DNA of 24,603 bases from Candidatus Bathyarchaeia archaeon (GTDB lineage Bacteria; Patescibacteriota; Microgenomatia; PFEM01; DATLAM01), in assembly GCA_035527435.1 (NCBI GenBank), contig DATLAM010000030.1, positions 1-24,603 of the forward strand, written 5' to 3'. Below, one piece after another: positions 4,126 to 24,603 of the stretch. How positions within the stretch are numbered: the stretch's first letter is position 1; each line of letters begins with the position of its first letter. A program made the position numbers and the translations under genes. Under the pieces are notes generated by a model. That model saw only the letters and a program-made list of their open reading frames with translations. It was not told the DNA's origin and did not search any database.

Positions 4126-5202
4126 TTACCAGGTGGGTAAAAATTCTTTCATATTCTCGGTCGTTATCTGGAATCCTTGCTCCTTCCCTTCAGCAATCAA
4201 CTTAGCCGCTTTACGACAGATACCGTTAATCGTGCGCTGAAGAGTCCGCACTCCGGCATCGTAACCTAGGGGCCTAACAATCCTTGGCCAAACCGTTTCA
4301 TCAATCCTGATTGCCTCTTTATCAAGCCCTGACTCCTCCATCATTCTGGGCAAAACATAGTTTTTGCCAATGGCAATCTTCTCCTCATCAGTATAGGAAG
4401 GCATTTGCATCGGCTCCAGCCGATCAAGAACAGCCGTGGCAATCGTGGTGGTATTGTTGGCGGTAGCAATAAATAAAACTTCGGAAAGGTCAAAGGGAAA
4501 ATCAATAAAGTGATCTCGAAAAGCCATATTCTGCTCCGGATCAAGTAACTCAACCAAAACCCCCATAATGCTGGCCCGACCCTCATCTGTAACCCGATCA
4601 AGCTCGTCAAGTAAAATCACCGGGTTTTTGGTCTGGCAGCGCCTAAGGGCTTTTATCAACAGCCCTGTTTCGGCATCTGGATGGACTCGAGACTGGCCCC
4701 GCAGATCAAGGGGGCTACCCATCCCGCCGAAAGGGATCCGGGCAAACTTTCTTCCCATTGCCTCGGCGATTGAATAAGCAATCGTGGTTTTGCCTGTTCC
4801 AACCAAGCCCACGAAACAAAGAATGGGCGCTCTCATAAATTTCAAGATTCCCTCTCCCTCTTTGCCTTCACCCTTTTCCCTTTTTAGCTTAAGAACCGCT
4901 AAATATTCCAAGATCCGGTCTTTAATCTCCTCAAGGCCATAATGATTTTTATCCAAGACTTCTTTGGCTCGGCCAAGATCCAAGATATCCTCGCTGCGCT
5001 TCTTCCAGGGAAGGAAGGTAATCCAATCAATGTAGGTGGCCACCCTTTCATATTCGGCAGAGTATTCCCCCAAACGGGCCATTAGAGTCAGGCGCTTAAG
5101 CATCGCCAGGGCCTTTTCTTTTAAATCAGGGGGCAAATCCGCAGCCCCAACTTTCTTTTCAAGCTTGGCAACTTCACGAAAAAGATCTAGGTCTTTAGCC
5201 AT
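4126..5202 (-). CDS. Lon-family AAA+ ATPase module only, with no N-terminal substrate domain and no Ser-Lys protease domain
   Basis: LPW...LDKNHYGLEEIKDRILEYLAV, Walker A GLVGTGKT, Walker B LLDELD, LLDPEQN..F.DH, LDR and AGVR match Lon. The protein stops where the protease domain would begin. Confidence 0.9.
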   Translation of the reverse strand: MAKDLDLFREVAKLEKKVGAADLPPDLKEKALAMLKRLTLMARLGEYSAEYERVATYIDWITFLPWKKRSEDILDLGRAKEVLDKNHYGLEEIKDRILEYLAVLKLKREKGEGKEGEGILKFMRAPILCFVGLVGTGKTTIAYSIAEAMGRKFARIPFGGMGSPLDLRGQSRVHPDAETGLLIKALRRCQTKNPVILLDELDRVTDEGRASIMGVLVELLDPEQNMAFRDHFIDFPFDLSEVLFIATANNTTTIATAVLDRLEPMQMPSYTDEEKIAIGKNYVLPRMMEESGLDKEAIRIDETVWPRIVRPLGYDAGVRTLQRTINGICRKAAKLIAEGKEQGFQITTENMKEFLPTW

Positions 5203-15748: not shown

Positions 15749-15777
15749 TTGAAAAAAAAGGAAGAACTTATTATAAT
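15749..15777 (+). promoter_or_regulatory. Sigma70 promoter of the secreted-protein cluster
   Basis: TTGAAA-17 nt-TATAAT in an AT-rich region, about 50 nt upstream of the ATG at 15827. Confidence 0.7.
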
Positions 15778-15826
15778 TTAAATGCGATCAGCGGTGGTTT
15801 AAAATTTTGGTCTAATAAAAATAAAA

Positions 15827-18121
15827 ATGGGGAAGAAAAAACGAATAGCCTCTCTTTTGAGCTTATTAGTCATTAGCTTGCTCTTGGCCAGAAACAAGCC
15901 AAAAATAAAACCTGTTTCAGCCGCTCCCCCACCAATTCCCAATCCGCTAATTTTAAGTTATGGAGGATTTGATAGCGTTTTTGAGCCTACCTTGCTTAAT
16001 GAAGAAAGAGAGACTCCTGTCCCCAATGTGGTCGAGTCTCGAGTCTCGATAAATTACCCCCAAGAAGCAAAAGAAGGGGTGAAAATTCTCATTGAAAAGG
16101 GCGTTCTGCCTGCTTTCCACGTCCCCTCTCTTCCCAGAACCGGCCATACTTATTGGTGGAACGATCTGGATTGTGTCAATAACGAAGCTAATTTTGAGGC
16201 CTGTGTTCAATATAATGTTGACCTCTGGGAAAGTGCTTTTACCAACGATTTGGACGGTTTTCTTCCAGGAGGCTATAAAGCCCTTGCGGTTGACGAGATC
16301 GGTCTTTGGACTGAAGATGAAAACAGCCGGAGGACAAGAATTAAACTAGAAACTTTAAAACGGGTCAAACAAAATTACCCCGACCGATTGATTTTTGTTT
16401 GGGGCTGTTGTATTGGCTCCGAGGAAGGAACTAGCCTTTCAATTAAAACCCTTACTTATATTAAAAATTATGCCGACCGGATGATATATGAAATCTATCT
16501 TCCCGAATTGACGCCCCAAAGTAGAAGAGATTACTATTTTAGTAAATATTTTAAAAACCGTATCCTCAACTTAAAAAACGCCTGTCAAGGAAAAAGCTGT
16601 GAAGGTGTCCTGGCAAAAACGGTCATTGGCTTGGGAACGGCTGACACCGAAGATTGGGCTTACGATCGCGATCCCTCGGTTGACTTTCCTGATTTCCTTG
16701 ACGCCGAAATTCACTATATTAGAAATACCTCAATTCTAAAAGATCTACCAGGCATTGCTTTTTATTCTTACGCCCTCACCCGGCCAGAAACAATCACTTG
16801 GATTAATAAACTTGTTCGACACTACTACCTCGATCGCCAGACTTCTTTTTTAGGCGACGGAAATGATGCTTTAACTTATGTTTCCAACCCCAGCTTTGAG
16901 CAGTCTGATGGCTGGGAATTTCGACCCGGGAGCGGGGGTCAAATCACCTATAAAGACACCGCTGCGGTTGGTCTTACCACCCCCGGAAAATTACCTCGCG
17001 TCCCTCACGGCAACAGAGTTCTTTATATGAAAAAAGGATCGTCCCAGAATGTCGTCACCCAGACAATCTCTCTTTCTCCCAGAAGCTTTTACCACCTTGA
17101 CGTTTATGCCAAAAAACAAACCCCTCCTTACGAGGCAGCCCATGCTGACGTTCAGGTCATTGATGCCGCCGGGAATAGCCTAATTAGCTTCAAAGAAAAA
17201 AAAGAGGTTGATTCCAGCAGTAGGCTTGATTTTGTCGCCAAATACCATAATTGGACCCGATTTAGGATTGAATTTAAAACACCTCCAGAAATAAAGACAG
17301 TCAAAATTATTCTTTCTGATAACCAGGTAGTTCCAGGTGAAGTCACTCTTTGGGATTTTATCGAGCTGGAAAGATTAAAAGCAGGCAGCCTAACGGCTGG
17401 CCTTGGCGGCCAAAATGTCAGTCAAGAAATTTTTAAAAACCCTGGCTTTGAACAGGGGTTGTTTTATTGGCGAGAGTGGCAGGCCTACAATAATACTCTT
17501 CACGGACAGGCTGTTTCTAGCCCGGTTAAAGATGGAGCTAAGAGCCTCTTGGTCCAAAGCGATGTAGGCACCGATGTTTGGCGTCAAGACATCTTTTTGC
17601 AACCCCCTCAAGTCTACAAAATTTCAGGCTGGGTATACCTTAAAGAAACATCGGAAAACGGCAAGGCTTACCTTTATGTTAGAGGGATTAAAAACCAAGG
17701 CGGCTCCACCGATTTTTCTGTTTTGACTGATAGTTCCAGGTTGAACCAGTGGCAATACATTGAAAAAGAATTCCAGTTTGGCTGGGCATACAAAAATGTC
17801 GCCGAGGCAGCCAGTCGAACCACCGGAGCCACCAAGGCTTTTTTTGATGAGCTTAAAATTGAGGCGGGGGGTTCCGCTATTGCCACTCCCACGCCTTCTC
17901 CCCCTTCCCTGTCTCTTTCTCCTGGCTGGAATCAGGTTACCTGGCTTAATGTCGCCGGTAAAAAAGCCTCAGATATTCCTGATGCTTGCCCCATTGCCGT
18001 CTCCCAACAAAACTTCTGGTTTAAGCCTTATGTAAAGAATTTTGGTGGAGCGAATTTTGAGCTTGAGGGTGGGAAAATATATTATCTAAAATGTAATCAG
18101 GAAGTTGTTTGGACTCTTTAA
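15827..18121 (+). CDS. Exported protein A: putative glycoside-hydrolase-like barrel, two CBM4/9-like (galactose-binding fold) domains, short PT linker and shared C-terminal module
   Basis: Basic then hydrophobic N-terminus. VDEIG/MIYEIY barrel-like region. Two N-P-[SG]-F-E-initiated beta-sandwich domains (YVSNPSFEQ, IFKNPGFEQ). ATPTPSP linker. Domain calls are by pattern recognition. Confidence 0.65.
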   Translation: MGKKKRIASLLSLLVISLLLARNKPKIKPVSAAPPPIPNPLILSYGGFDSVFEPTLLNEERETPVPNVVESRVSINYPQEAKEGVKILIEKGVLPAFHVPSLPRTGHTYWWNDLDCVNNEANFEACVQYNVDLWESAFTNDLDGFLPGGYKALAVDEIGLWTEDENSRRTRIKLETLKRVKQNYPDRLIFVWGCCIGSEEGTSLSIKTLTYIKNYADRMIYEIYLPELTPQSRRDYYFSKYFKNRILNLKNACQGKSCEGVLAKTVIGLGTADTEDWAYDRDPSVDFPDFLDAEIHYIRNTSILKDLPGIAFYSYALTRPETITWINKLVRHYYLDRQTSFLGDGNDALTYVSNPSFEQSDGWEFRPGSGGQITYKDTAAVGLTTPGKLPRVPHGNRVLYMKKGSSQNVVTQTISLSPRSFYHLDVYAKKQTPPYEAAHADVQVIDAAGNSLISFKEKKEVDSSSRLDFVAKYHNWTRFRIEFKTPPEIKTVKIILSDNQVVPGEVTLWDFIELERLKAGSLTAGLGGQNVSQEIFKNPGFEQGLFYWREWQAYNNTLHGQAVSSPVKDGAKSLLVQSDVGTDVWRQDIFLQPPQVYKISGWVYLKETSENGKAYLYVRGIKNQGGSTDFSVLTDSSRLNQWQYIEKEFQFGWAYKNVAEAASRTTGATKAFFDELKIEAGGSAIATPTPSPPSLSLSPGWNQVTWLNVAGKKASDIPDACPIAVSQQNFWFKPYVKNFGGANFELEGGKIYYLKCNQEVVWTL
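17906..18121 (+). repeat. Shared 71-aa C-terminal module, copy 1
   Basis: Aligns without gaps to copies 2 and 3. 216 nt including the stop. Confidence 0.95.
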
Positions 18122-18152
18122 AAAAAGCACCAGATTTAATTCTTAAAACAAA

Positions 18153-20198
18153 ATGACCTTCAACTTGAAACAGAAAATCTTAAGACTTTCTGTTTTTATA
18201 ATTTTAATCTTTATCTTATTAATATTCCTGCTGTCTGGTAAACCAAAATTTAATTCTTGGATTGAAGCTTCATCTTTATTTCCAGTCTCGGGTCCAGTTA
18301 TCCATAGGGGAGGAACCTTAGCTGAGGTTTGGCAGGAATATGAAAACATCCCGCCAACAAGCAATCTTGATGCTCAAGTTTTCATTGACGGCAACAGTTA
18401 CGTCGTCAAAGATAATCAATATTGGTATCTGGCAAAAGATTCCAATCAATTTGTCAGTGGTTCGTTGACCCAGTTTTGGGGAAGCGAAATTAATCATCCT
18501 CCGATTGAAAAAATTGACGTCTGGACGATAACTCCCGATGGGTCTTGGATTGTCACCAAAAATGGCAGCTGGTGGCTTAAGTCTCTGGGAACAAACCAAT
18601 GGAGTAGCGGCACGCTAGCGGAAATCTGGCAAGATTATACCAATATTCCACCCACGGATGGAATTGATACCCAAGTTTATTTCTCAGATTGGACCACTTT
18701 GATCACTAAAGGTGGTAATTACTGGCGATTAAGGGCAAACTCCAAAGTTTTTGAAAGTGGAACGCTCAAAGATTTATGGAAGGAGTATTATGTTCATCCT
18801 CCAACTGACGGAATTGACGTTTACACCATAACAGGATCTTTTGAAGTGGTCACTAAAGATACTCTATATTGGGTCTTGGATAATGGTGAAAGACAAACAA
18901 AAACCTGGAAGTCTGGCAATGACTATTTTGGCCAAAGAGAACCTTACCCATATTATGATTCAACATCAGGTTGGTATTACTTATTTTATGATGGTCAGGA
19001 GGTAGGAGGAGAAAATTATGTTGTTAATACCATTAGCGTGGCTAAATCACGCTCTCCCCTTGGTCCATGGATAAAAAAACCCGTAAAAATTGAAGGTGTG
19101 ATAAGGTGGTGGGAGACATACAGCATTGGCTCACCTTGTATTTTCAAAGAAGGAAATTACTACTATATGTTTTACCTCGCCTCTGCCGGTGTCTATAATC
19201 CTGATGAACCCTTATTTAAAGTTGGAGGTGACTACCGAATTGGTTTGGCAAGAGCGACAACCCTCGATGGTTCCTGGATTAAACTTAAAGGTGACGGAAC
19301 TTTAAACCCTACTTCAAGTAATGATAAACCTCTTTTGCCACGAGGAATAGAAGATGACTATTGGGACAATATCTTCAATACAAGTTTTGTTAGTCTGCTC
19401 AAAAAAGATGGTCAATTCTTTCTTTTCTATACCGGACATGGAGATCGAGGATTTGGGGTAGGTTTAGCCAGAGCGAGTTCTATCCTGGGTCCTTATCAAA
19501 AATTAAATCCCCCAGGCAAGAATGACAATATTATTATTCCGCCGGAAGAAATGGTGGAAAACCTCAGTCTCTATTTCGATCAGCCTTCTAATTCTTGGTT
19601 TCTTTTTGGAAATTATTTGAAGATTGGTTGCGGGTGTGCCTGCCGAGGGGGACAAGGAACAGTGGTTTACCGAACTCAAGATCCTTTCAATTGGGATATT
19701 AGTAAAAAGAAATATCTGGTAATGGTTGATGAAAATTATCCGTGCCCCGCCAAGCCTTATGAAGATTTTGATATTTACAATCAACAATCAAGTCAGTTTC
19801 GAGGCCATGCAGGAGTACCGGGAATTGTTAAAGATCCCCAACAAGATCAATTGTATCTCTATTTTGATGCCAATGATTTTAATATGGCCGACCAAAACGA
19901 TCCCCAAAATCACTTTTTCAGAGACCTTTATTTAATGCAGATTCCAATTGAGCAATTGAGAGCCCTGCTTCCTTTAGGAGAAAGTTTTATTTTTTTAGAA
20001 GGCTGGAATGAGATTACCTGGCCCGCCGTGACGGGAATTAAAGCCTCAGATATTCCTCCCGAATGCCCAATTGCCGTGGCTAAAGAAAACTCCTGGTGGA
20101 AACCTTATGTGAAGAATTATGGTGGGCTGAATTTTGAGTTTGAGGGTGGGAAAATATATTATCTAAAATGTAATCAGGTAGTTGTCTGGAGCCTTTGA
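18153..20198 (+). CDS. Exported or membrane-anchored protein B: four hemopexin-like repeats, five-bladed beta-propeller glycosidase-like domain (GH43/GH32/GH117-type) and shared C-terminal module
   Basis: N-terminal TM helix. Tandem repeats of about 50 aa. Propeller blades of the type YYLFY..G / IG.A.....GPW.K recur. Confidence 0.7.
   Translation: MTFNLKQKILRLSVFIILIFILLIFLLSGKPKFNSWIEASSLFPVSGPVIHRGGTLAEVWQEYENIPPTSNLDAQVFIDGNSYVVKDNQYWYLAKDSNQFVSGSLTQFWGSEINHPPIEKIDVWTITPDGSWIVTKNGSWWLKSLGTNQWSSGTLAEIWQDYTNIPPTDGIDTQVYFSDWTTLITKGGNYWRLRANSKVFESGTLKDLWKEYYVHPPTDGIDVYTITGSFEVVTKDTLYWVLDNGERQTKTWKSGNDYFGQREPYPYYDSTSGWYYLFYDGQEVGGENYVVNTISVAKSRSPLGPWIKKPVKIEGVIRWWETYSIGSPCIFKEGNYYYMFYLASAGVYNPDEPLFKVGGDYRIGLARATTLDGSWIKLKGDGTLNPTSSNDKPLLPRGIEDDYWDNIFNTSFVSLLKKDGQFFLFYTGHGDRGFGVGLARASSILGPYQKLNPPGKNDNIIIPPEEMVENLSLYFDQPSNSWFLFGNYLKIGCGCACRGGQGTVVYRTQDPFNWDISKKKYLVMVDENYPCPAKPYEDFDIYNQQSSQFRGHAGVPGIVKDPQQDQLYLYFDANDFNMADQNDPQNHFFRDLYLMQIPIEQLRALLPLGESFIFLEGWNEITWPAVTGIKASDIPPECPIAVAKENSWWKPYVKNYGGLNFEFEGGKIYYLKCNQVVVWSL
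18312..18902 (+). repeat. Four tandem coding repeats of about 49-50 aa (hemopexin-like)
   Basis: G[TS]L...W.....[NH]..PP....[LI]D.........[VT]K...[YW]W at aa 54, 103, 153 and 203. Confidence 0.85.
19983..20198 (+). repeat. Shared 71-aa C-terminal module, copy 2
   Basis: 48/71 aa identical to copy 1. Confidence 0.95.
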
Positions 20199-20204
20199 AG
20201 TAAA

Positions 20205-21689
20205 ATGGGTAAAAAAATTTTAATATCGCTCCTTGTTCTCCTGTTTTTTGGTTTTCAGATTTCTCTCGATACCAAAGTTTTTGCTCAAAATGGCAATGTT
20301 GTTTCTTTTCGAGCGGATAGAATTGCCTTAATTAACGGTGAGCCTTTTTTCCCAATAGGCTTATTTACTGAACAAATGCCTAATTTACCAGAAGACTTCT
20401 TTGCCGAAATTTCCGACCCAGAAACAGCAGGATTTAATCTGGTTCGCCTGGTTGACACTGACGTCATCAGTAAGACTCCTGAAGACTATGCTTTTTTGTC
20501 CACCCACAACCTTAAAGCTTGGCTTACTATTAATAGTTCTTTAACCGTTGATAAAGATACCAAACTGAGAACGCTCATCGCCAATTACAAAAATGCCAAC
20601 TTCCTGCTTGCTTGGGAAGGAATAGATGAACCCTGTTATAAGTACTATAACGGCAATAGTCTTTTTGATCCAAACAAAGTTAACCAAAATTTTCCTGGAT
20701 ACCAAACCCTAAAAAATTTAGATACCAACCATCCCCTTTGGCACAACCACTGGCCCAAAGTGGGCACCGGTGGCCCTTGTGCGATACCCTGGAACATAAA
20801 CACCAATACTAATGTTAGCGGGGTTGATGTTTACCCAGTCGGCCGAAGTGACTACGAGCTAGAAGATGTTGGCTTTTTTACTGAATGGTCAAGCGAGCTT
20901 CTGACTCCCAGGGGTCCTGTTTGGATGGTACTTCAGGGCTTTGGTTGGGGTGACATTGAGGGACTTTCTGGCAGAAGACCAAATTATTCAGAAATCAGGT
21001 TTATGACCTATGACGCCCTGGTTCACAAGCAAGAAGTAAGTGACCAGATTATTCCGGGAGCCACTGGTATTTTCTATTATGGTTTAGCAATCGTTAATAA
21101 AAAAGAGTGTGGTGGTAATCCGGTCTGCGAGAAAAATGGTGATGGAATGAGAGAAACCCAAATCTTTAGTGACTTGAAAAAAATCTCTCACGAATTAAAA
21201 CAATTGGAACTGGGACTTCTCGGTCACATTAATCCAGAGTTTATCTCCAACAATAGTCAAGTTGTTGTCTTGGCTAAAGAAACAAACAACGAAACCTTTG
21301 TTTTTGTTGTTAATGAATCACCCTCTTCGCAAAATGTCACTATCCCTGGCTTTTCTGATCAATATACCGTGAAAGAATTCTTTTCGAACGAGGAGCTATT
21401 GGTTATTAACCGGAGTGCTAGCTTGACTCTTTTGCCCTATTCGGTCAAAATTCTTTGCCAAAAAGCTTCACCTTCTCTATCTCTCTCTCTTGGCTGGAAT
21501 GAGATTACCTGGGCTGACATCTCGGGCAAAAAGGCTTCGGATATTCCTCCAGAGTGCCCGATAGCCGTTAGTAAACAAAACTTCTGGTTTAAACCATATG
21601 TGAGGAATTTTGGGGGAGTTAATTTTGGTTTTGAAAATGGGAAGAGCTATTATCTAAAATGCAATCAAGAGATGATTTGGGGTTTGTGA
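20205..21689 (+). CDS. Secreted protein C: glycoside-hydrolase-like TIM barrel, small beta-sandwich and shared C-terminal module
   Basis: Signal peptide (VFA-Q). NGEPFFPIG, GFN, AWEGIDEP, DVYP, VWMVLQGFGW, ALVH and GATGIFYY motifs, then a VFVVNES beta domain. Confidence 0.7.
   Translation: MGKKILISLLVLLFFGFQISLDTKVFAQNGNVVSFRADRIALINGEPFFPIGLFTEQMPNLPEDFFAEISDPETAGFNLVRLVDTDVISKTPEDYAFLSTHNLKAWLTINSSLTVDKDTKLRTLIANYKNANFLLAWEGIDEPCYKYYNGNSLFDPNKVNQNFPGYQTLKNLDTNHPLWHNHWPKVGTGGPCAIPWNINTNTNVSGVDVYPVGRSDYELEDVGFFTEWSSELLTPRGPVWMVLQGFGWGDIEGLSGRRPNYSEIRFMTYDALVHKQEVSDQIIPGATGIFYYGLAIVNKKECGGNPVCEKNGDGMRETQIFSDLKKISHELKQLELGLLGHINPEFISNNSQVVVLAKETNNETFVFVVNESPSSQNVTIPGFSDQYTVKEFFSNEELLVINRSASLTLLPYSVKILCQKASPSLSLSLGWNEITWADISGKKASDIPPECPIAVSKQNFWFKPYVRNFGGVNFGFENGKSYYLKCNQEMIWGL
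21474..21689 (+). repeat. Shared 71-aa C-terminal module, copy 3
   Basis: 52/71 aa identical to copy 1 and 47/71 to copy 2. Confidence 0.95.
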
Positions 21690-21844
21690 AGCTTTTTCTG
21701 AATTTCTTCAAGATAAAACTTGCCGGGAAGGCTGATAATTTTTGGCAAGATTACGTTGCCGGTTTTGGAGGAAGAAATTTTGGATTGCAAAACAACCAAA
21801 ATTACTTTATAAATGTAAGTAAGAATTGTAATTGGACACCTTAA
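21686..21844 (+). pseudogene. Orphan, divergent, 5'-truncated fourth copy of the C-terminal module (52-aa ORF or gene remnant)
   Basis: KADNFWQDYVAGFGGRNFGLQNNQNYFINVSKNCNWTP aligns without gaps to module positions 34-71. GTGA overlap with the C stop and TAATG overlap with the next start. Confidence 0.7.
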
Positions 21845-23340
21845 TGATTTCTTTGAAAAAACCCATTTTTCTTTCAAAGCTTTCCAAAAAACAGCTAATC
21901 AGCCTCGCCAGTTTTTTAATAATCCTTATCTCCCTTCCTCTAGCAATTTTTCTCACTAAACAACAGCAAAGTTATCAAGGAAGGGCGGTGGGACCTGAAG
22001 CAAGACCGGCCAAAGTAAAAATCACCAATCTTCACGGCGGAGGTTTTTCTGTTTCCTGGGCTTCTGTTTCCATGAATGATGCCTACCAATTTATCGACAC
22101 CACTGGTTGGGTAGAATACGGAACCGCCCAAAACAGTCTTAACCAAACCGCTTATGACGATCGGGGTGGCGAAGATGTTTCTTCAACCACCCATCATGTT
22201 TCCATTTTTTATCTGAATCCCGATACCACCTACTATTTCAAAATTAAATCCGGGCCCTATCTTTTTGGTCTTAATGTGGCCGGTGACGGCTGGGTCAGAG
22301 GCGGCGCTGCCAAAGAACAAAAAACACCCAAAACACTTGACCTTCTCGGCAACCCTCACCCAGCCTATGGCTACATTAAAAATCAAACTGGTAATATTAT
22401 TGGCAACGCTTTAGCTTATGTTAGGCTTAAAAAAGACGGTTCTGATACCCAATCGGCCTTATTGTCGACCGTTACCAGGGCCAATGAGGGCTGGGTAGTC
22501 GACCTTAAAAACGCGAGGTCCTCCGGTTTGGGAAATTTTTTTAATTTTGATAACCAAGACCGGGTTTTAGTTGAGATTCAGGCCGCAGAAAAAGGCACCG
22601 CCTCGGCTGATTTTGCTGTCAGTGGGTCTTCGCCTGCACCAGACATTGCTCTTGCCTCTCCTACTGTTCCGACTGCCACTCAAACAATACCTCCCACGGC
22701 AACACCAACGCCAACAGGTGGCCCTGCGGCAACCTCAACTCCCACCCCCACTCCTCTTCCCACCGCTACGCCTACACCTTCACCTAAGCCAACCCCCACG
22801 CCACTGCCAACGCCTACTCCTACCCCATTACCCCCCACAGCTACCCCAACCTCAACCCCCACCCAAGTGCCAAACACAGTTAATCTTGATTTCCAAGTTA
22901 AATTCCAAGGGATCAATAACCAAAAACCAGTCAAAACAGCAAAAATTACGCTTAAAAAACCCGGCGAGTCAGAAACAGCTCATGAGGAAACTGTTAATTT
23001 TAACAGTAACCAAAGCGGCGTTTGGAGCGGTAGGATAATGAATATCTCCCCGGGCACTTACGATCTTTACATTAAGGGCTGGGCCCATTTACAAAAGAAG
23101 TTTGAAGGGATCACTCTGGCTGAGGGTGAAAATAGCCAAGATTTTTCCGGAACTAGCCTATTAGCCGGAGACATTAATGATAACAACAGAATTGAGGCGC
23201 TTGATCTGGCTATTGTTATTGAACACTACTGGCCGGATACGCCAGCCAACAGTCCGGCTGACTTTAATCTTGACGGTTCAGTCAATGCCTTAGATATTGG
23301 CTTGGTAATCGAAAACTACTTCCTAGAAGGAGATTCATGA
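21844..23340 (+). CDS. Surface protein D: Fn3/purple-acid-phosphatase-N-like domain, beta-sandwich, Pro/Thr linker, beta-sandwich and C-terminal dockerin
   Basis: TM anchor. ITNL....FSVSW...GWVEYG...HHVSI..L.PDTTYYFKI. Two EF-hand dockerin repeats, DINDNNRIEALD and DFNLDGSVNALD. The ATG at 21844 is preferred over the TTG at 21832. Confidence 0.8.
   Translation: MISLKKPIFLSKLSKKQLISLASFLIILISLPLAIFLTKQQQSYQGRAVGPEARPAKVKITNLHGGGFSVSWASVSMNDAYQFIDTTGWVEYGTAQNSLNQTAYDDRGGEDVSSTTHHVSIFYLNPDTTYYFKIKSGPYLFGLNVAGDGWVRGGAAKEQKTPKTLDLLGNPHPAYGYIKNQTGNIIGNALAYVRLKKDGSDTQSALLSTVTRANEGWVVDLKNARSSGLGNFFNFDNQDRVLVEIQAAEKGTASADFAVSGSSPAPDIALASPTVPTATQTIPPTATPTPTGGPAATSTPTPTPLPTATPTPSPKPTPTPLPTPTPTPLPPTATPTSTPTQVPNTVNLDFQVKFQGINNQKPVKTAKITLKKPGESETAHEETVNFNSNQSGVWSGRIMNISPGTYDLYIKGWAHLQKKFEGITLAEGENSQDFSGTSLLAGDINDNNRIEALDLAIVIEHYWPDTPANSPADFNLDGSVNALDIGLVIENYFLEGDS
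22657..22872 (+). repeat. Pro/Thr-rich (PT)n linker
   Basis: PTATPTPT/PTPTPLP low-complexity run of about 72 aa. Confidence 0.9.
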
Positions 23341-23906
23341 GCAAAAAATTAATCCCCGTTCTGATGGTCATTTTAGGTTCAATTTTAGCTCTCTTTTGTG
23401 TTGGTTGGAGTTTAAGCGGTAAATGGTCTTTACCGGAAAAACTCAGCCTTTTGGAGATGGTTCCCCTGCCTAAAAAAGAAATTTCTCCTAAGCTGTTCCT
23501 TTCTTTTGATCCCAAAGAAAAAACCGTTTATCAAGGCGAAAGTTTTACGGTTAACGTTTTAGCTGAAAGCGAAAGAAAGCTTCTTGCCGCTGATCTTTTT
23601 ATCACCTTTAATCCCCAGGCTTTAGAGCTGGAAAATATTAAACCTGGCGGGTTTTTTGCCTCAGCTAAAGAATTTTCCCAAAAGATTGACCTGGTCAAAG
23701 GTGAAGTTTTTTACGCCCTTGGTTCACTAGAACCCGCTGAAGAAGAAGGGGTTTTAGTTTCCCTAACTTTTAAAGCCAAAACAGGAGACCAGCAGGGGTC
23801 AATTTGGATTGGAAAAAAGACCTTGGTTTCGGCTAAAGAAGACCAAAGAGTTGACATCCAATTGCCAGATGCAGGAAAATATCTTATACTGGTAAGGAAA
23901 CAATAA
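23337..23906 (+). CDS. Membrane-anchored single-cohesin-domain protein E
   Basis: N-terminal TM. GESFTVNV, AADLFITFNP..LEL..I.PG.FF and GVLVSLTFKAK match the cohesin pattern. ATGA overlap with D. Confidence 0.75.
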   Translation: MSKKLIPVLMVILGSILALFCVGWSLSGKWSLPEKLSLLEMVPLPKKEISPKLFLSFDPKEKTVYQGESFTVNVLAESERKLLAADLFITFNPQALELENIKPGGFFASAKEFSQKIDLVKGEVFYALGSLEPAEEEGVLVSLTFKAKTGDQQGSIWIGKKTLVSAKEDQRVDIQLPDAGKYLILVRKQ

Positions 23907-23914
23907 ACAAGAAA

Positions 23915-24603
23915 ATGAAGAGAAAAGTCCTGGCCGTTTTTATCCTTCTTGTCATGCTTGCCTCTATCCCGGTTGGTGTTTTTCTGGTTAAAAAAAGACA
24001 AGAAATTCAATTAAGGGCCGCCCCAGCGACTGTTCTTTCTTTGTTCCCAGAAGTGGAAGATTACGAGGTTGATGAAGTCTTTACCTTAAATGTCAATATC
24101 GATACCGGAGAAAACTTAATTGTCAGCGCCGACATAATCTTAAATTATGATCCTTCGATTCTAGAGGGGGTAGAGGTTACCATGGGAAGCTTCCTTCCGG
24201 GTGCCCAGGAACTAAATAAAAACATTAATAATGATCTGGGAAAGATAATCTATAGTCTTTACACCACCCAAGAAAACGCCCAACAAGGCGGAGGGGCACT
24301 TGTCTCAATCACTTTCAAGGGGGTCGCGCCGGGAACAAGCACGGTTGTCATCGATAAATCCCTGTCTCTGATTGGCGGGCTTGGAGAGAAAGGTCAAAAT
24401 TTGCTCGTTAGCGCCACTGACAGTTCCTATTTGATTGCTGATGCTGAATCCCAACCAACAATCACTCCCACTCAGACACTTACTCCCACCCCTATCGGAG
24501 TAGGAGGCGGCGAGGAGCCAACAGCCACCCCGACACCAACCACTACTGACCAGGATTTGGACGACGAAAACGGTACGGGTGGAGGGACTGAGCCAACAGC
24601 CAC
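23915..24603 (+). CDS. Cohesin-domain surface protein F with PT/acidic linker; 3'-truncated by the window edge; absent from the ORF track
   Basis: Manual translation gives MKRKVLAVFILLVMLASIPVGVFLVKKRQEIQLRA, FTLNVNIDTG, SADIILNYDPSILE and GALVSITFKG, then PTITPTQTLTPTP. No stop before the edge. Confidence 0.8.
   Translation, partial: MKRKVLAVFILLVMLASIPVGVFLVKKRQEIQLRAAPATVLSLFPEVEDYEVDEVFTLNVNIDTGENLIVSADIILNYDPSILEGVEVTMGSFLPGAQELNKNINNDLGKIIYSLYTTQENAQQGGGALVSITFKGVAPGTSTVVIDKSLSLIGGLGEKGQNLLVSATDSSYLIADAESQPTITPTQTLTPTPIGVGGGEEPTATPTPTTTDQDLDDENGTGGGTEPTA

Follow-up and report, generated by a model that had tools for sequence, protein, structure and literature searches.

A rare C-terminal 71-residue module and a candidate two-tier, cellulosome-like surface display locus in a bacterium of the candidate phyla radiation

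The subject of this analysis is a contig of 24,603 nucleotides (DATLAM010000030.1, assembly GCA_035527435.1), referred to below, at its full length, as the window. Between positions 15827 and 24601 six long open reading frames (ORFs), g1 to g6, follow one another on the plus strand throughout, as an earlier note on this DNA had stated, and the last of them is cut by the contig end (Table 1). The first three encode predicted secreted enzymes ending in a common module of 71 residues, g4 encodes a non-catalytic protein with a dockerin, and g5 and g6 encode proteins with a single cohesin each. A hydrophobic signal or anchor segment can be read from the translations at the N-terminus of all six proteins, in line with the export or transmembrane N-termini previously ascribed to the intact ones. 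We consider it rather probable that the locus provides for a two-tier, cellulosome-like display on the cell surface, in which the module would bind the g4 adaptor, and the dockerin of g4, in its turn, the cohesins.

Table 1. Coordinates and composition of the features of the window and of the related loci (GH, glycoside hydrolase; CBM, carbohydrate-binding module; A and B, genes with module subtypes A and B; MAG, metagenome-assembled genome)
Feature	Position or loci	Strand	Description	Basis
Promoter-like site	15749..15777	+	Sigma-70-like match TTGAAA-17-TATAAT, upstream of g1, at the top of the region; 11/12 consensus matches	Consensus match only
g1	15827..18121	+	764 aa: signal/anchor, unclassified GH-like TIM barrel, two CBM_4_9-like domains, PT linker, module A (17906-18118)	Pfam and Atlas structure
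g2	18153..20198	+	681 aa: anchor, four repeats of ~50 aa, GH43-like beta-propeller, module A (19986-20195)	Pfam
g3	20205..21689	+	494 aa: cleavable-looking signal peptide, GH42/clan GH-A-like TIM barrel, beta-sandwich, module A (21474-21686)	Atlas structure and Pfam
Module remnant	21716..21844	+	3' half of a subtype-B module; its TAA overlaps the ATG of g4 as TAATG	E 1.3e-12, profile positions 33-72
g4	21844..23340	+	498 aa: N-terminal anchor, tandem FN3-like domains (residues ~40-279, nt 21961-22680), PT linker, CarboxypepD_reg-like X module, dockerin (23164-23313)	Pfam, structure model
g5	23337..23906	+	189 aa: N-terminal membrane anchor, single cohesin (23517-23858)	Pfam
g6	23915..24601	+	At least 229 aa, cut by the contig end: signal/anchor, cohesin (24050-24361), PT stalk	Pfam
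Arrangement (i)	Window, L005-7, L048, L051, P0079 locus; cut form in L010, L013, L020		hrcA, A...B, g4 with X-dockerin, cohesin, cohesin	
Arrangement (ii)	L044-46		rplA, A, A, B, g4 with dockerin, 295-aa dockerin-like protein, different 393-aa cohesin protein, rplJ	
Arrangement (iii)	L047 (NCBI MAG)		hrcA, B, B, B, g4 N-region with Cys-rich C-domain, without dockerin or cohesin, murJ	
pilN-pilO-linked paralogues of the g4 N-region	L047:12934-16037; L048:7683-10802; L051:6494-9726; L031:13775-17028			

As to the enzymes, the CBM_4_9 domains of g1 are recognised by Pfam in two stretches with E 6.6e-11 and 43.2 bits (cut-off 25.9); its barrel, in the Atlas structure, gives TM-scores of 0.73-0.75 to unnamed families and of 0.62-0.66 to barrels of the GH18 type, which is a lead only. 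The Glyco_hydro_43 match of g2 (5e-10, 39.6 bits against a cut-off of 32.2) consists of two short stretches and was seen only when residues 255-612 were scanned alone, a Hemopexin match of the same protein reached 0.021 only, and the homologue search returned a single relative, P0077. The barrel of g3 has no match in Pfam; its Atlas model gives TM-scores of 0.64-0.71 to clusters where a fifth to a half of the members carry GH42, and Malt_amylase_C is matched in this protein by Pfam with 6.7e-7. No dockerin was found by Pfam in any of the three, so the dockerin-bearing enzymes of a classical cellulosome are absent here. The earlier note had also described the enzymes as lacking dockerins, and the genome, which is 66% complete, has only one dockerin, that of g4.

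The modules of g1, g2 and g3 are 62-67% identical in pairs. A profile search among 1.84 billion cluster representatives found the module in 73 proteins, and in nearly all of these hits the match ends 0-2 residues from the end of the protein. The domains that precede it are diverse: GH39, GH5, GH42, Glyco_hydro_cc, polysaccharide lyase, beta-helix, GHL15, GxGYxYP, DUF4832/4874, Metallophos, phosphodiesterase, and others. The module has two conserved Cys and occurs in two main subtypes, A, that of the window enzymes, and B, which is longer, has its second Cys shifted and ends in C-x-W-x-P. The AlphaFold2 model of the module is all-beta, with six strands and a pLDDT of 94.4. Searches with the module gave no match in Pfam at E < 0.1 and none in NCBIfam or among PDB sequences; Foldseek against the PDB returned a best E of 1.7, and the best Z of the VIA wide fold search was 5.0, to RCK_C domains, with one CBM at Z 3.0. 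Since neither sequence nor fold matches known families, the module is neither a dockerin, whose EF-hand-like duplicated helix-loop fold differs from the all-beta six-stranded model, nor a described CBM, and, judging by these comparisons of sequence and fold, the family is previously undescribed. It is not common in the phylum either, being found in none of 400 sampled genomes and nowhere in the scan of GTDB contigs, with one weak match among 22 genomes of the order. Inside a 1595-aa RHS/YD-repeat protein, encoded at L050:76-4863 on the minus strand and divergently from a g4-like gene, residues ~1423-1497 resemble the module weakly (E 5e-9).

The terminal position of the module in nearly all of the 73 hits, together with the occurrence of similar predicted domains on assorted unrelated extracellular proteins of uncultured organisms (AlphaFold DB, ESM Atlas), would suit a C-terminal sorting or processing signal, like the C-terminal domain of the type IX secretion system (T9SS) or sortase-type signals, in which case g4 may be a helper and not a permanent tether. 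This explanation seems to us very improbable, considering that the module proteins have ordinary N-terminal Sec-type signals, that the loci contain no candidate machinery, that the envelope is Gram-positive-like, with a sortase, while the module is devoid of LPXTG, and that the N-region of g4 has no enzyme-like domain.

The dockerin of g4 is matched by Dockerin_1 (PF00404) with 3.2e-9 and 37.3 bits (cut-off 22.9), and two D-x-N/D-x-D/N...ALD repeats are readable in the translation, as is expected of a putative type I dockerin. The Pfam match of the N-region is Pur_ac_phosph_N (FN3-like), and its structure model (pLDDT 88, pTM 0.81) matches tandem FNIII domains and not cohesins; such tandem domains are a common scaffold for protein binding. 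No cohesin was found in g4 by Pfam, and no enzyme-like domain in its N-region by Pfam or the fold search. The cohesins of g5 (7.1e-11, 42.9 bits) and g6 (2.4e-10, 41.2 bits) both exceed the cut-off of 24.1 for PF00963. With one cohesin in each of these two proteins and none in g4, the locus has no multi-cohesin scaffoldin of the kind that organises a classical cellulosome, and the genome-wide inventory amounts to one dockerin (g4), two cohesins (g5 and g6) and one sortase gene. The orthologue of g6 in L005 (271 aa) ends in LPETG and a hydrophobic segment, without a charged tail; the sortase signal of this type scores below the cut-offs, with 17.4 bits for Gram_pos_anchor (cut-off 20) and 14.8 for TIGR01167 (cut-off 15.9). 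A motif of roughly the form FLVKQRQE-L/I-R-x-K/R-A-A-P follows closely on the N-terminal hydrophobic segment in g4, in g6 and in the homologues of both (window 21900-21990 and 23960-24030; L005:10042-10160), and might be a signal or a processing motif peculiar to this lineage.

Module genes lie directly upstream of the g4 orthologue in 10 of the 12 loci that have a g4 orthologue or homologue (N-region 40-73% identical, 57-73% for the orthologues of the module loci). These ten are the window, L005-7, L010, L013, L020, L044-46, L047, L048, L051 and, probably, the P0079 locus; the survey leaves out the subtype-C-like module variants P0055 (on a short contig) and P0033. Conservation of the gene neighbourhood, by which the earlier note had proposed to check its reading, is observed within one clade, module enzymes adjoining dockerin and cohesin genes in other metagenome loci as well. 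The last module gene before g4 is of type B and is joined to it by overlapping stop and start codons (TAATG) wherever the junction is seen. The loci fall into three arrangements and occupy two places in the genome, one beside hrcA, the other between rplA and rplJ. The module is associated more tightly with the N-domain of g4 than with the dockerin or the cohesins, as L047 keeps both the module and this domain, having no dockerin or cohesin. The cohesins themselves were considered as the receptor of the module and found unlikely, because they change (L044) or vanish (L047) between the arrangements while the N-region of g4 persists.

Several further observations concern these loci and the relatives of g4. 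At L044:3994-16679 the whole cassette sits between rplA and rplJ of an otherwise conserved secE-nusG-rplK-rplA-rplJ-rplL cluster, with a 23S_rRNA_IVP gene between nusG and rplK. A paralogue of the g4 N-region of about 450 aa (FN3/Pur_ac_phosph_N, Big_13, C-terminal hydrophobic anchor) is encoded in every related locus just after rpsT-pilN-pilO and a gene of ~100 aa, and is possibly a surface protein associated with type IV pili. Another family of the order (genome G417, contig C20; L054:4078-7738) has two short overlapping genes, each similar to one half of the g4 N-region; the gene after them encodes a 707-aa protein that carries, at its C-terminus, two domains weakly resembling the module (E 5e-5).

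The dockerin and the cohesins have a wider distribution. Pfam cohesins are present in 14 of the 23 genomes of the order, where a recurrent cassette consists of a variable passenger with a C-terminal X-dockerin, a cohesin protein of ~190 aa and then a larger one (~220-305 aa), which has a PT stalk and terminates in a hydrophobic tail preceded by an LPXTG-like motif (PVTG, PEAG, LPETG). The passengers include a clan GH-A barrel (G405), subtilase S8 (G406, locus L032), metallophosphoesterase (G410, locus L034), and CARDB or Ig-like domains. In G405, the closest relative by DnaK (92.6% identity), the cassette occupies the same site beside hrcA-grpE-dnaK, and a clan GH-A enzyme is fused directly to the X-dockerin; the module is found nowhere in this genome. 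The supposition that dockerin and cohesin genes are specific to module-bearing genomes was rejected, the cassette being present across the order without the module; the cassette of a dockerin and two cohesins arose before the module and does not depend on it. Among its variants are a protein with two cohesins and an X-dockerin in G407 (L035) and, in G417 (L036), three X-dockerin proteins in a row ahead of a single cohesin.

One complex was modelled, that of g4 residues 40-279 with the type A module of g3, each with its own unpaired alignment. The ipSAE score was 0.90 in three of three runs, versus 0.00-0.01 in three controls (best 0.01); in calibration, 58 of 80 solved complexes attain this mark, as do 2 of 110 mismatched pairs, counts that hold only roughly here because custom alignments were used. 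The contacts involve both FN3-like domains of g4 (H64-G67, D106, F122-Y123, T164-Y177, T209-N223, P264) and residues W8, W38, Y42, V43, G47, G48 and K62 of the module. The g4 interface is more conserved in the orthologues than the remaining positions (0.81 versus 0.64; Mann-Whitney p ~8e-4, indicative only, as positions and sequences are non-independent); in module-less paralogues of the N-region the same positions score 0.23 versus 0.29 elsewhere, and the difference is not significant. The model supports, short of demonstration, a predicted binding of the module to the N-region of g4. The earlier proposal that the enzymes attach through the new module is strengthened by this prediction, with the refinement that the receptor would be the tandem FN3-like N-region and not a cohesin.

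The module could, of course, be a new CBM, directed to the substrate or to the organism's own cell wall, the g4/cohesin neighbourhood being then inherited synteny with no physical link. A small aromatic-rich beta domain found at the C-termini of proteins with many carbohydrate-active enzyme (CAZyme) domains, with PT linkers, is the classic pattern of a CBM, and both the distant module variants that have no g4, dockerin or cohesin neighbours and the dockerin-cohesin cassettes of relatives devoid of the module agree with such a function. We nevertheless regard it as rather unlikely: no CBM is matched in Pfam or the PDB, the module also occurs on enzymes not acting on glycans (Metallophos, phosphodiesterase), the complex prediction with the g4 N-region is strong and specific, the predicted patch of g4 is conserved specifically in the orthologues, and module genes accompany g4 at a second genome position as well as in a locus without dockerin and cohesins.

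The two-tier display that we favour might work as follows. In the first tier, the disulfide-containing beta module of the three secreted enzymes would lodge between the FN3-like domains of g4, in the groove that they form; this step is inferred from the synteny, from the natural alternative found in G405 and from the single complex model. In the second tier, the X-module and dockerin of g4 would bind the single cohesins of the membrane-anchored g5 and of g6; this step may be taken as established at the family level. The g6 protein, judging from its orthologues, would extend on a PT stalk and be linked to the wall by the sortase via LPETG. Thus, g4 would act as an adaptor tethering interchangeable enzymes to the cell surface. 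Evenly balanced, in our estimation, is the broader proposition that the module and the tandem FN3-like N-region of g4 make up a new docking pair, unrelated to cohesin-dockerin, which, in the candidate phyla radiation (CPR), makes up the tier that recruits enzymes to a miniature cellulosome-like display, with subtypes A and B possibly giving two specificities and the enzymes being swapped by recombination within the module.

A number of observations weigh against this two-tier display. The complex score is a confidence of the model, obtained from unpaired alignments, and the model covers type A only, types A and B differing in charge at interface positions 37-41. On the module side, the interface is only slightly and not strongly enriched in conserved positions: it contains 7 of the 20 most conserved ones, about 5 being expected by chance. 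Members of the g4 N-domain family are found in every one of the 23 genomes of the order, and these genomes do not have the module. In L050 the g4 orthologue (~57% identical) combines the N-region with a beta-helix and an X-dockerin, and no module gene precedes it. Module genes are also missing near the g4 homologues of L052 (40-45% identical) and L049 (35%), and P0067 and P0070 are the distant variants that stand alone. Because all loci with the module and g4 belong to one CPR clade (DnaK 74-83% identical), their synteny may be partly inherited. Finally, among the sequencing runs listed as containing the window sequence there are no RNA runs, only metagenome DNA of soil and groundwater.

The remnant between g3 and g4 and the comparison of g2 with its single relative give some idea of how the passengers could have been exchanged. 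P0077 is, in L044, the last gene before g4. Its passenger shares ~86% identity with that of g2 as far as the module's GWNxITWP motif (the complete BLASTP alignment gives 79%); past this motif the g2 of the window is of type A and P0077 is of type B. With the remnant, the B module of P0077 shares 66% identity over its 3' half. In the simplest reading, g3, with an A-type module sequence, would have been inserted by recombination within the module, and the insertion would have stranded the old B-type 3' end, still bearing the start of g4. We suppose that passengers and modules are reshuffled in this way, via recombination inside module-coding DNA, the remnant being the leftover of one such event. 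The 3' DNA of the modules of g1 and g2 is nearly identical over ~80 nt (window 18040-18121 and 20117-20198) while the copy of g3 differs, which suggests gene conversion in this stretch.

As for the transcription of the locus, the site at the top of the region is the best promoter match within it and agrees with the upstream promoter of the earlier note, though weaker sites lie inside the cluster. Altogether 26 promoter-like sites were counted in the region, versus 13.3 +/- 3.9 in shuffles, and many of them are weaker ones within the gene cluster, including one at 21631-21660, immediately before g4. Terminator-like sites are not enriched (10 versus 11.3 in shuffles), and the three on the plus strand are weak and intragenic, which accords with the terminator hairpin having gone unnoticed previously. 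The spacing described in the earlier note, gaps of 6-31 nt or overlapping stop and start codons, is correct for four junctions: g1/g2 (31 nt), g2/g3 (6 nt), g4/g5 (ATGA overlap) and g5/g6 (8 nt). It is wrong for g3/g4, separated by the 154 nt that hold the truncated module copy. The apparent single operon of the earlier note is unsupported. The internal promoter-like sites, above all that just before g4, and the separate occurrence of the cassette and of the enzymes in other genomes would fit mere neighbours, that is, free secreted enzymes beside an unrelated adhesin/cohesin system with no joint function. We find this quite improbable in view of the TAATG coupling of the last module gene to g4 in every locus with a visible junction, of the ten loci in three arrangements, and of the predicted complex between the module and g4. 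Upstream of g1, a housekeeping block is encoded on the minus strand (ftsK, RNase J, udg, a Lon-like AAA+ gene, pnp, infB, nusA, dnaJ, dnaK, grpE, hrcA). In this block, a 358-aa protein (window 4126-5202, minus strand) has Pfam matches to AAA and Lon_lid only, with no match to the Lon protease or N-domain.

A small genome and the lack of ribosomal proteins L30 and L9 are traits of Microgenomates-like members of the CPR. The genomes of the order measure 0.5-1.3 Mb, that of the window's organism being ~0.7 Mb, and neither L30 nor L9 was found in any of the 23 genomes (18 of them at least 90% complete), in which the controls were matched; the earlier assignment of the DNA to such an organism fits these data. 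The window sequence occurs in metagenome DNA runs from soil and groundwater.

The substrate is probably some polysaccharide, either of a host or of the environment. The earlier note had specified host envelope glycans as the target; this is unsupported, and the families seen (GH43-like, clan GH-A-like, GH39, GH5, lyases) fit the scavenging of environmental polysaccharides equally well. Dockerin proteins of a cultivated saccharibacterium were speculated to target host glycans (PMC10633639), and broad glycoside hydrolase inventories for complex substrates are reported for Microgenomates (PMC7143001).

We know of no well-described route to bacterial multi-enzyme surface complexes other than cohesin-dockerin. 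If the two-tier display is real, a second, unrelated connector pair feeding a cohesin-dockerin anchor would show how such systems diversify, and would explain how ultra-small CPR bacteria hold a changing set of polysaccharide-degrading enzymes on their surface. The module, with its 71 residues, would also be a small orthogonal docking tag for designer enzyme assemblies.

Compared with known C-terminal modules, the one described here is similar to the C-terminal domains of the T9SS of Bacteroidota in being a beta domain, ~70-80 residues long, with which diverse secreted enzymes end, but no similarity to them was found, and the module loci contain no processing machinery; to our knowledge, CPR-type genomes have neither an outer membrane nor a T9SS. 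It resembles the CBMs appended to CAZymes in size, in its beta fold, in the PT linker and in being attached promiscuously to a wide range of catalytic domains; it differs from them in having no sequence or fold match to a known CBM, in its terminal position and in its predicted protein partner.

As to complete systems, in Ruminococcus flavefaciens the sortase-anchored (LPXTG) cohesin of ScaE binds the X-dockerin of ScaB or CttA (PMC5301203). Similarly, in the locus studied here the dyad of X-module and dockerin ends a non-catalytic protein, the anchors have single cohesins, the orthologue of g6 carries LPETG and a hydrophobic tail, and a sortase is encoded in the genome. However, the enzymes of R. 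flavefaciens use their own dockerins on cohesins, whereas the enzymes of the present locus are without dockerins and its adaptor is without a cohesin, the first tier consisting, according to the prediction, of a new beta module and a tandem FN3-like receptor, in a CPR-type organism with a genome of only ~0.7 Mb. Adaptor scaffoldins, such as ScaC of R. flavefaciens, are small dockerin-bearing bridging proteins that widen the set of attachable enzymes (PMC5301203, PMC5934362). The g4 protein is proposed to be a small bridging dockerin protein of the same sort, but known adaptor scaffoldins capture enzymes by a cohesin, and g4 would do so by an N-region of tandem FNIII-like fold.

Within the CPR, an essential dockerin protein is known from the saccharibacterium (PMC10633639). 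Another comparison is the simple cohesin-dockerin display of the same order, which uses the same cassette of an X-dockerin and two anchored cohesins, located in the nearest relative at the same genome position. In these relatives the dockerin is placed directly on the passenger, be it a clan GH-A enzyme, subtilase S8, Metallophos or CARDB, while in the lineage of the window the module is on the enzymes and the dockerin on g4.

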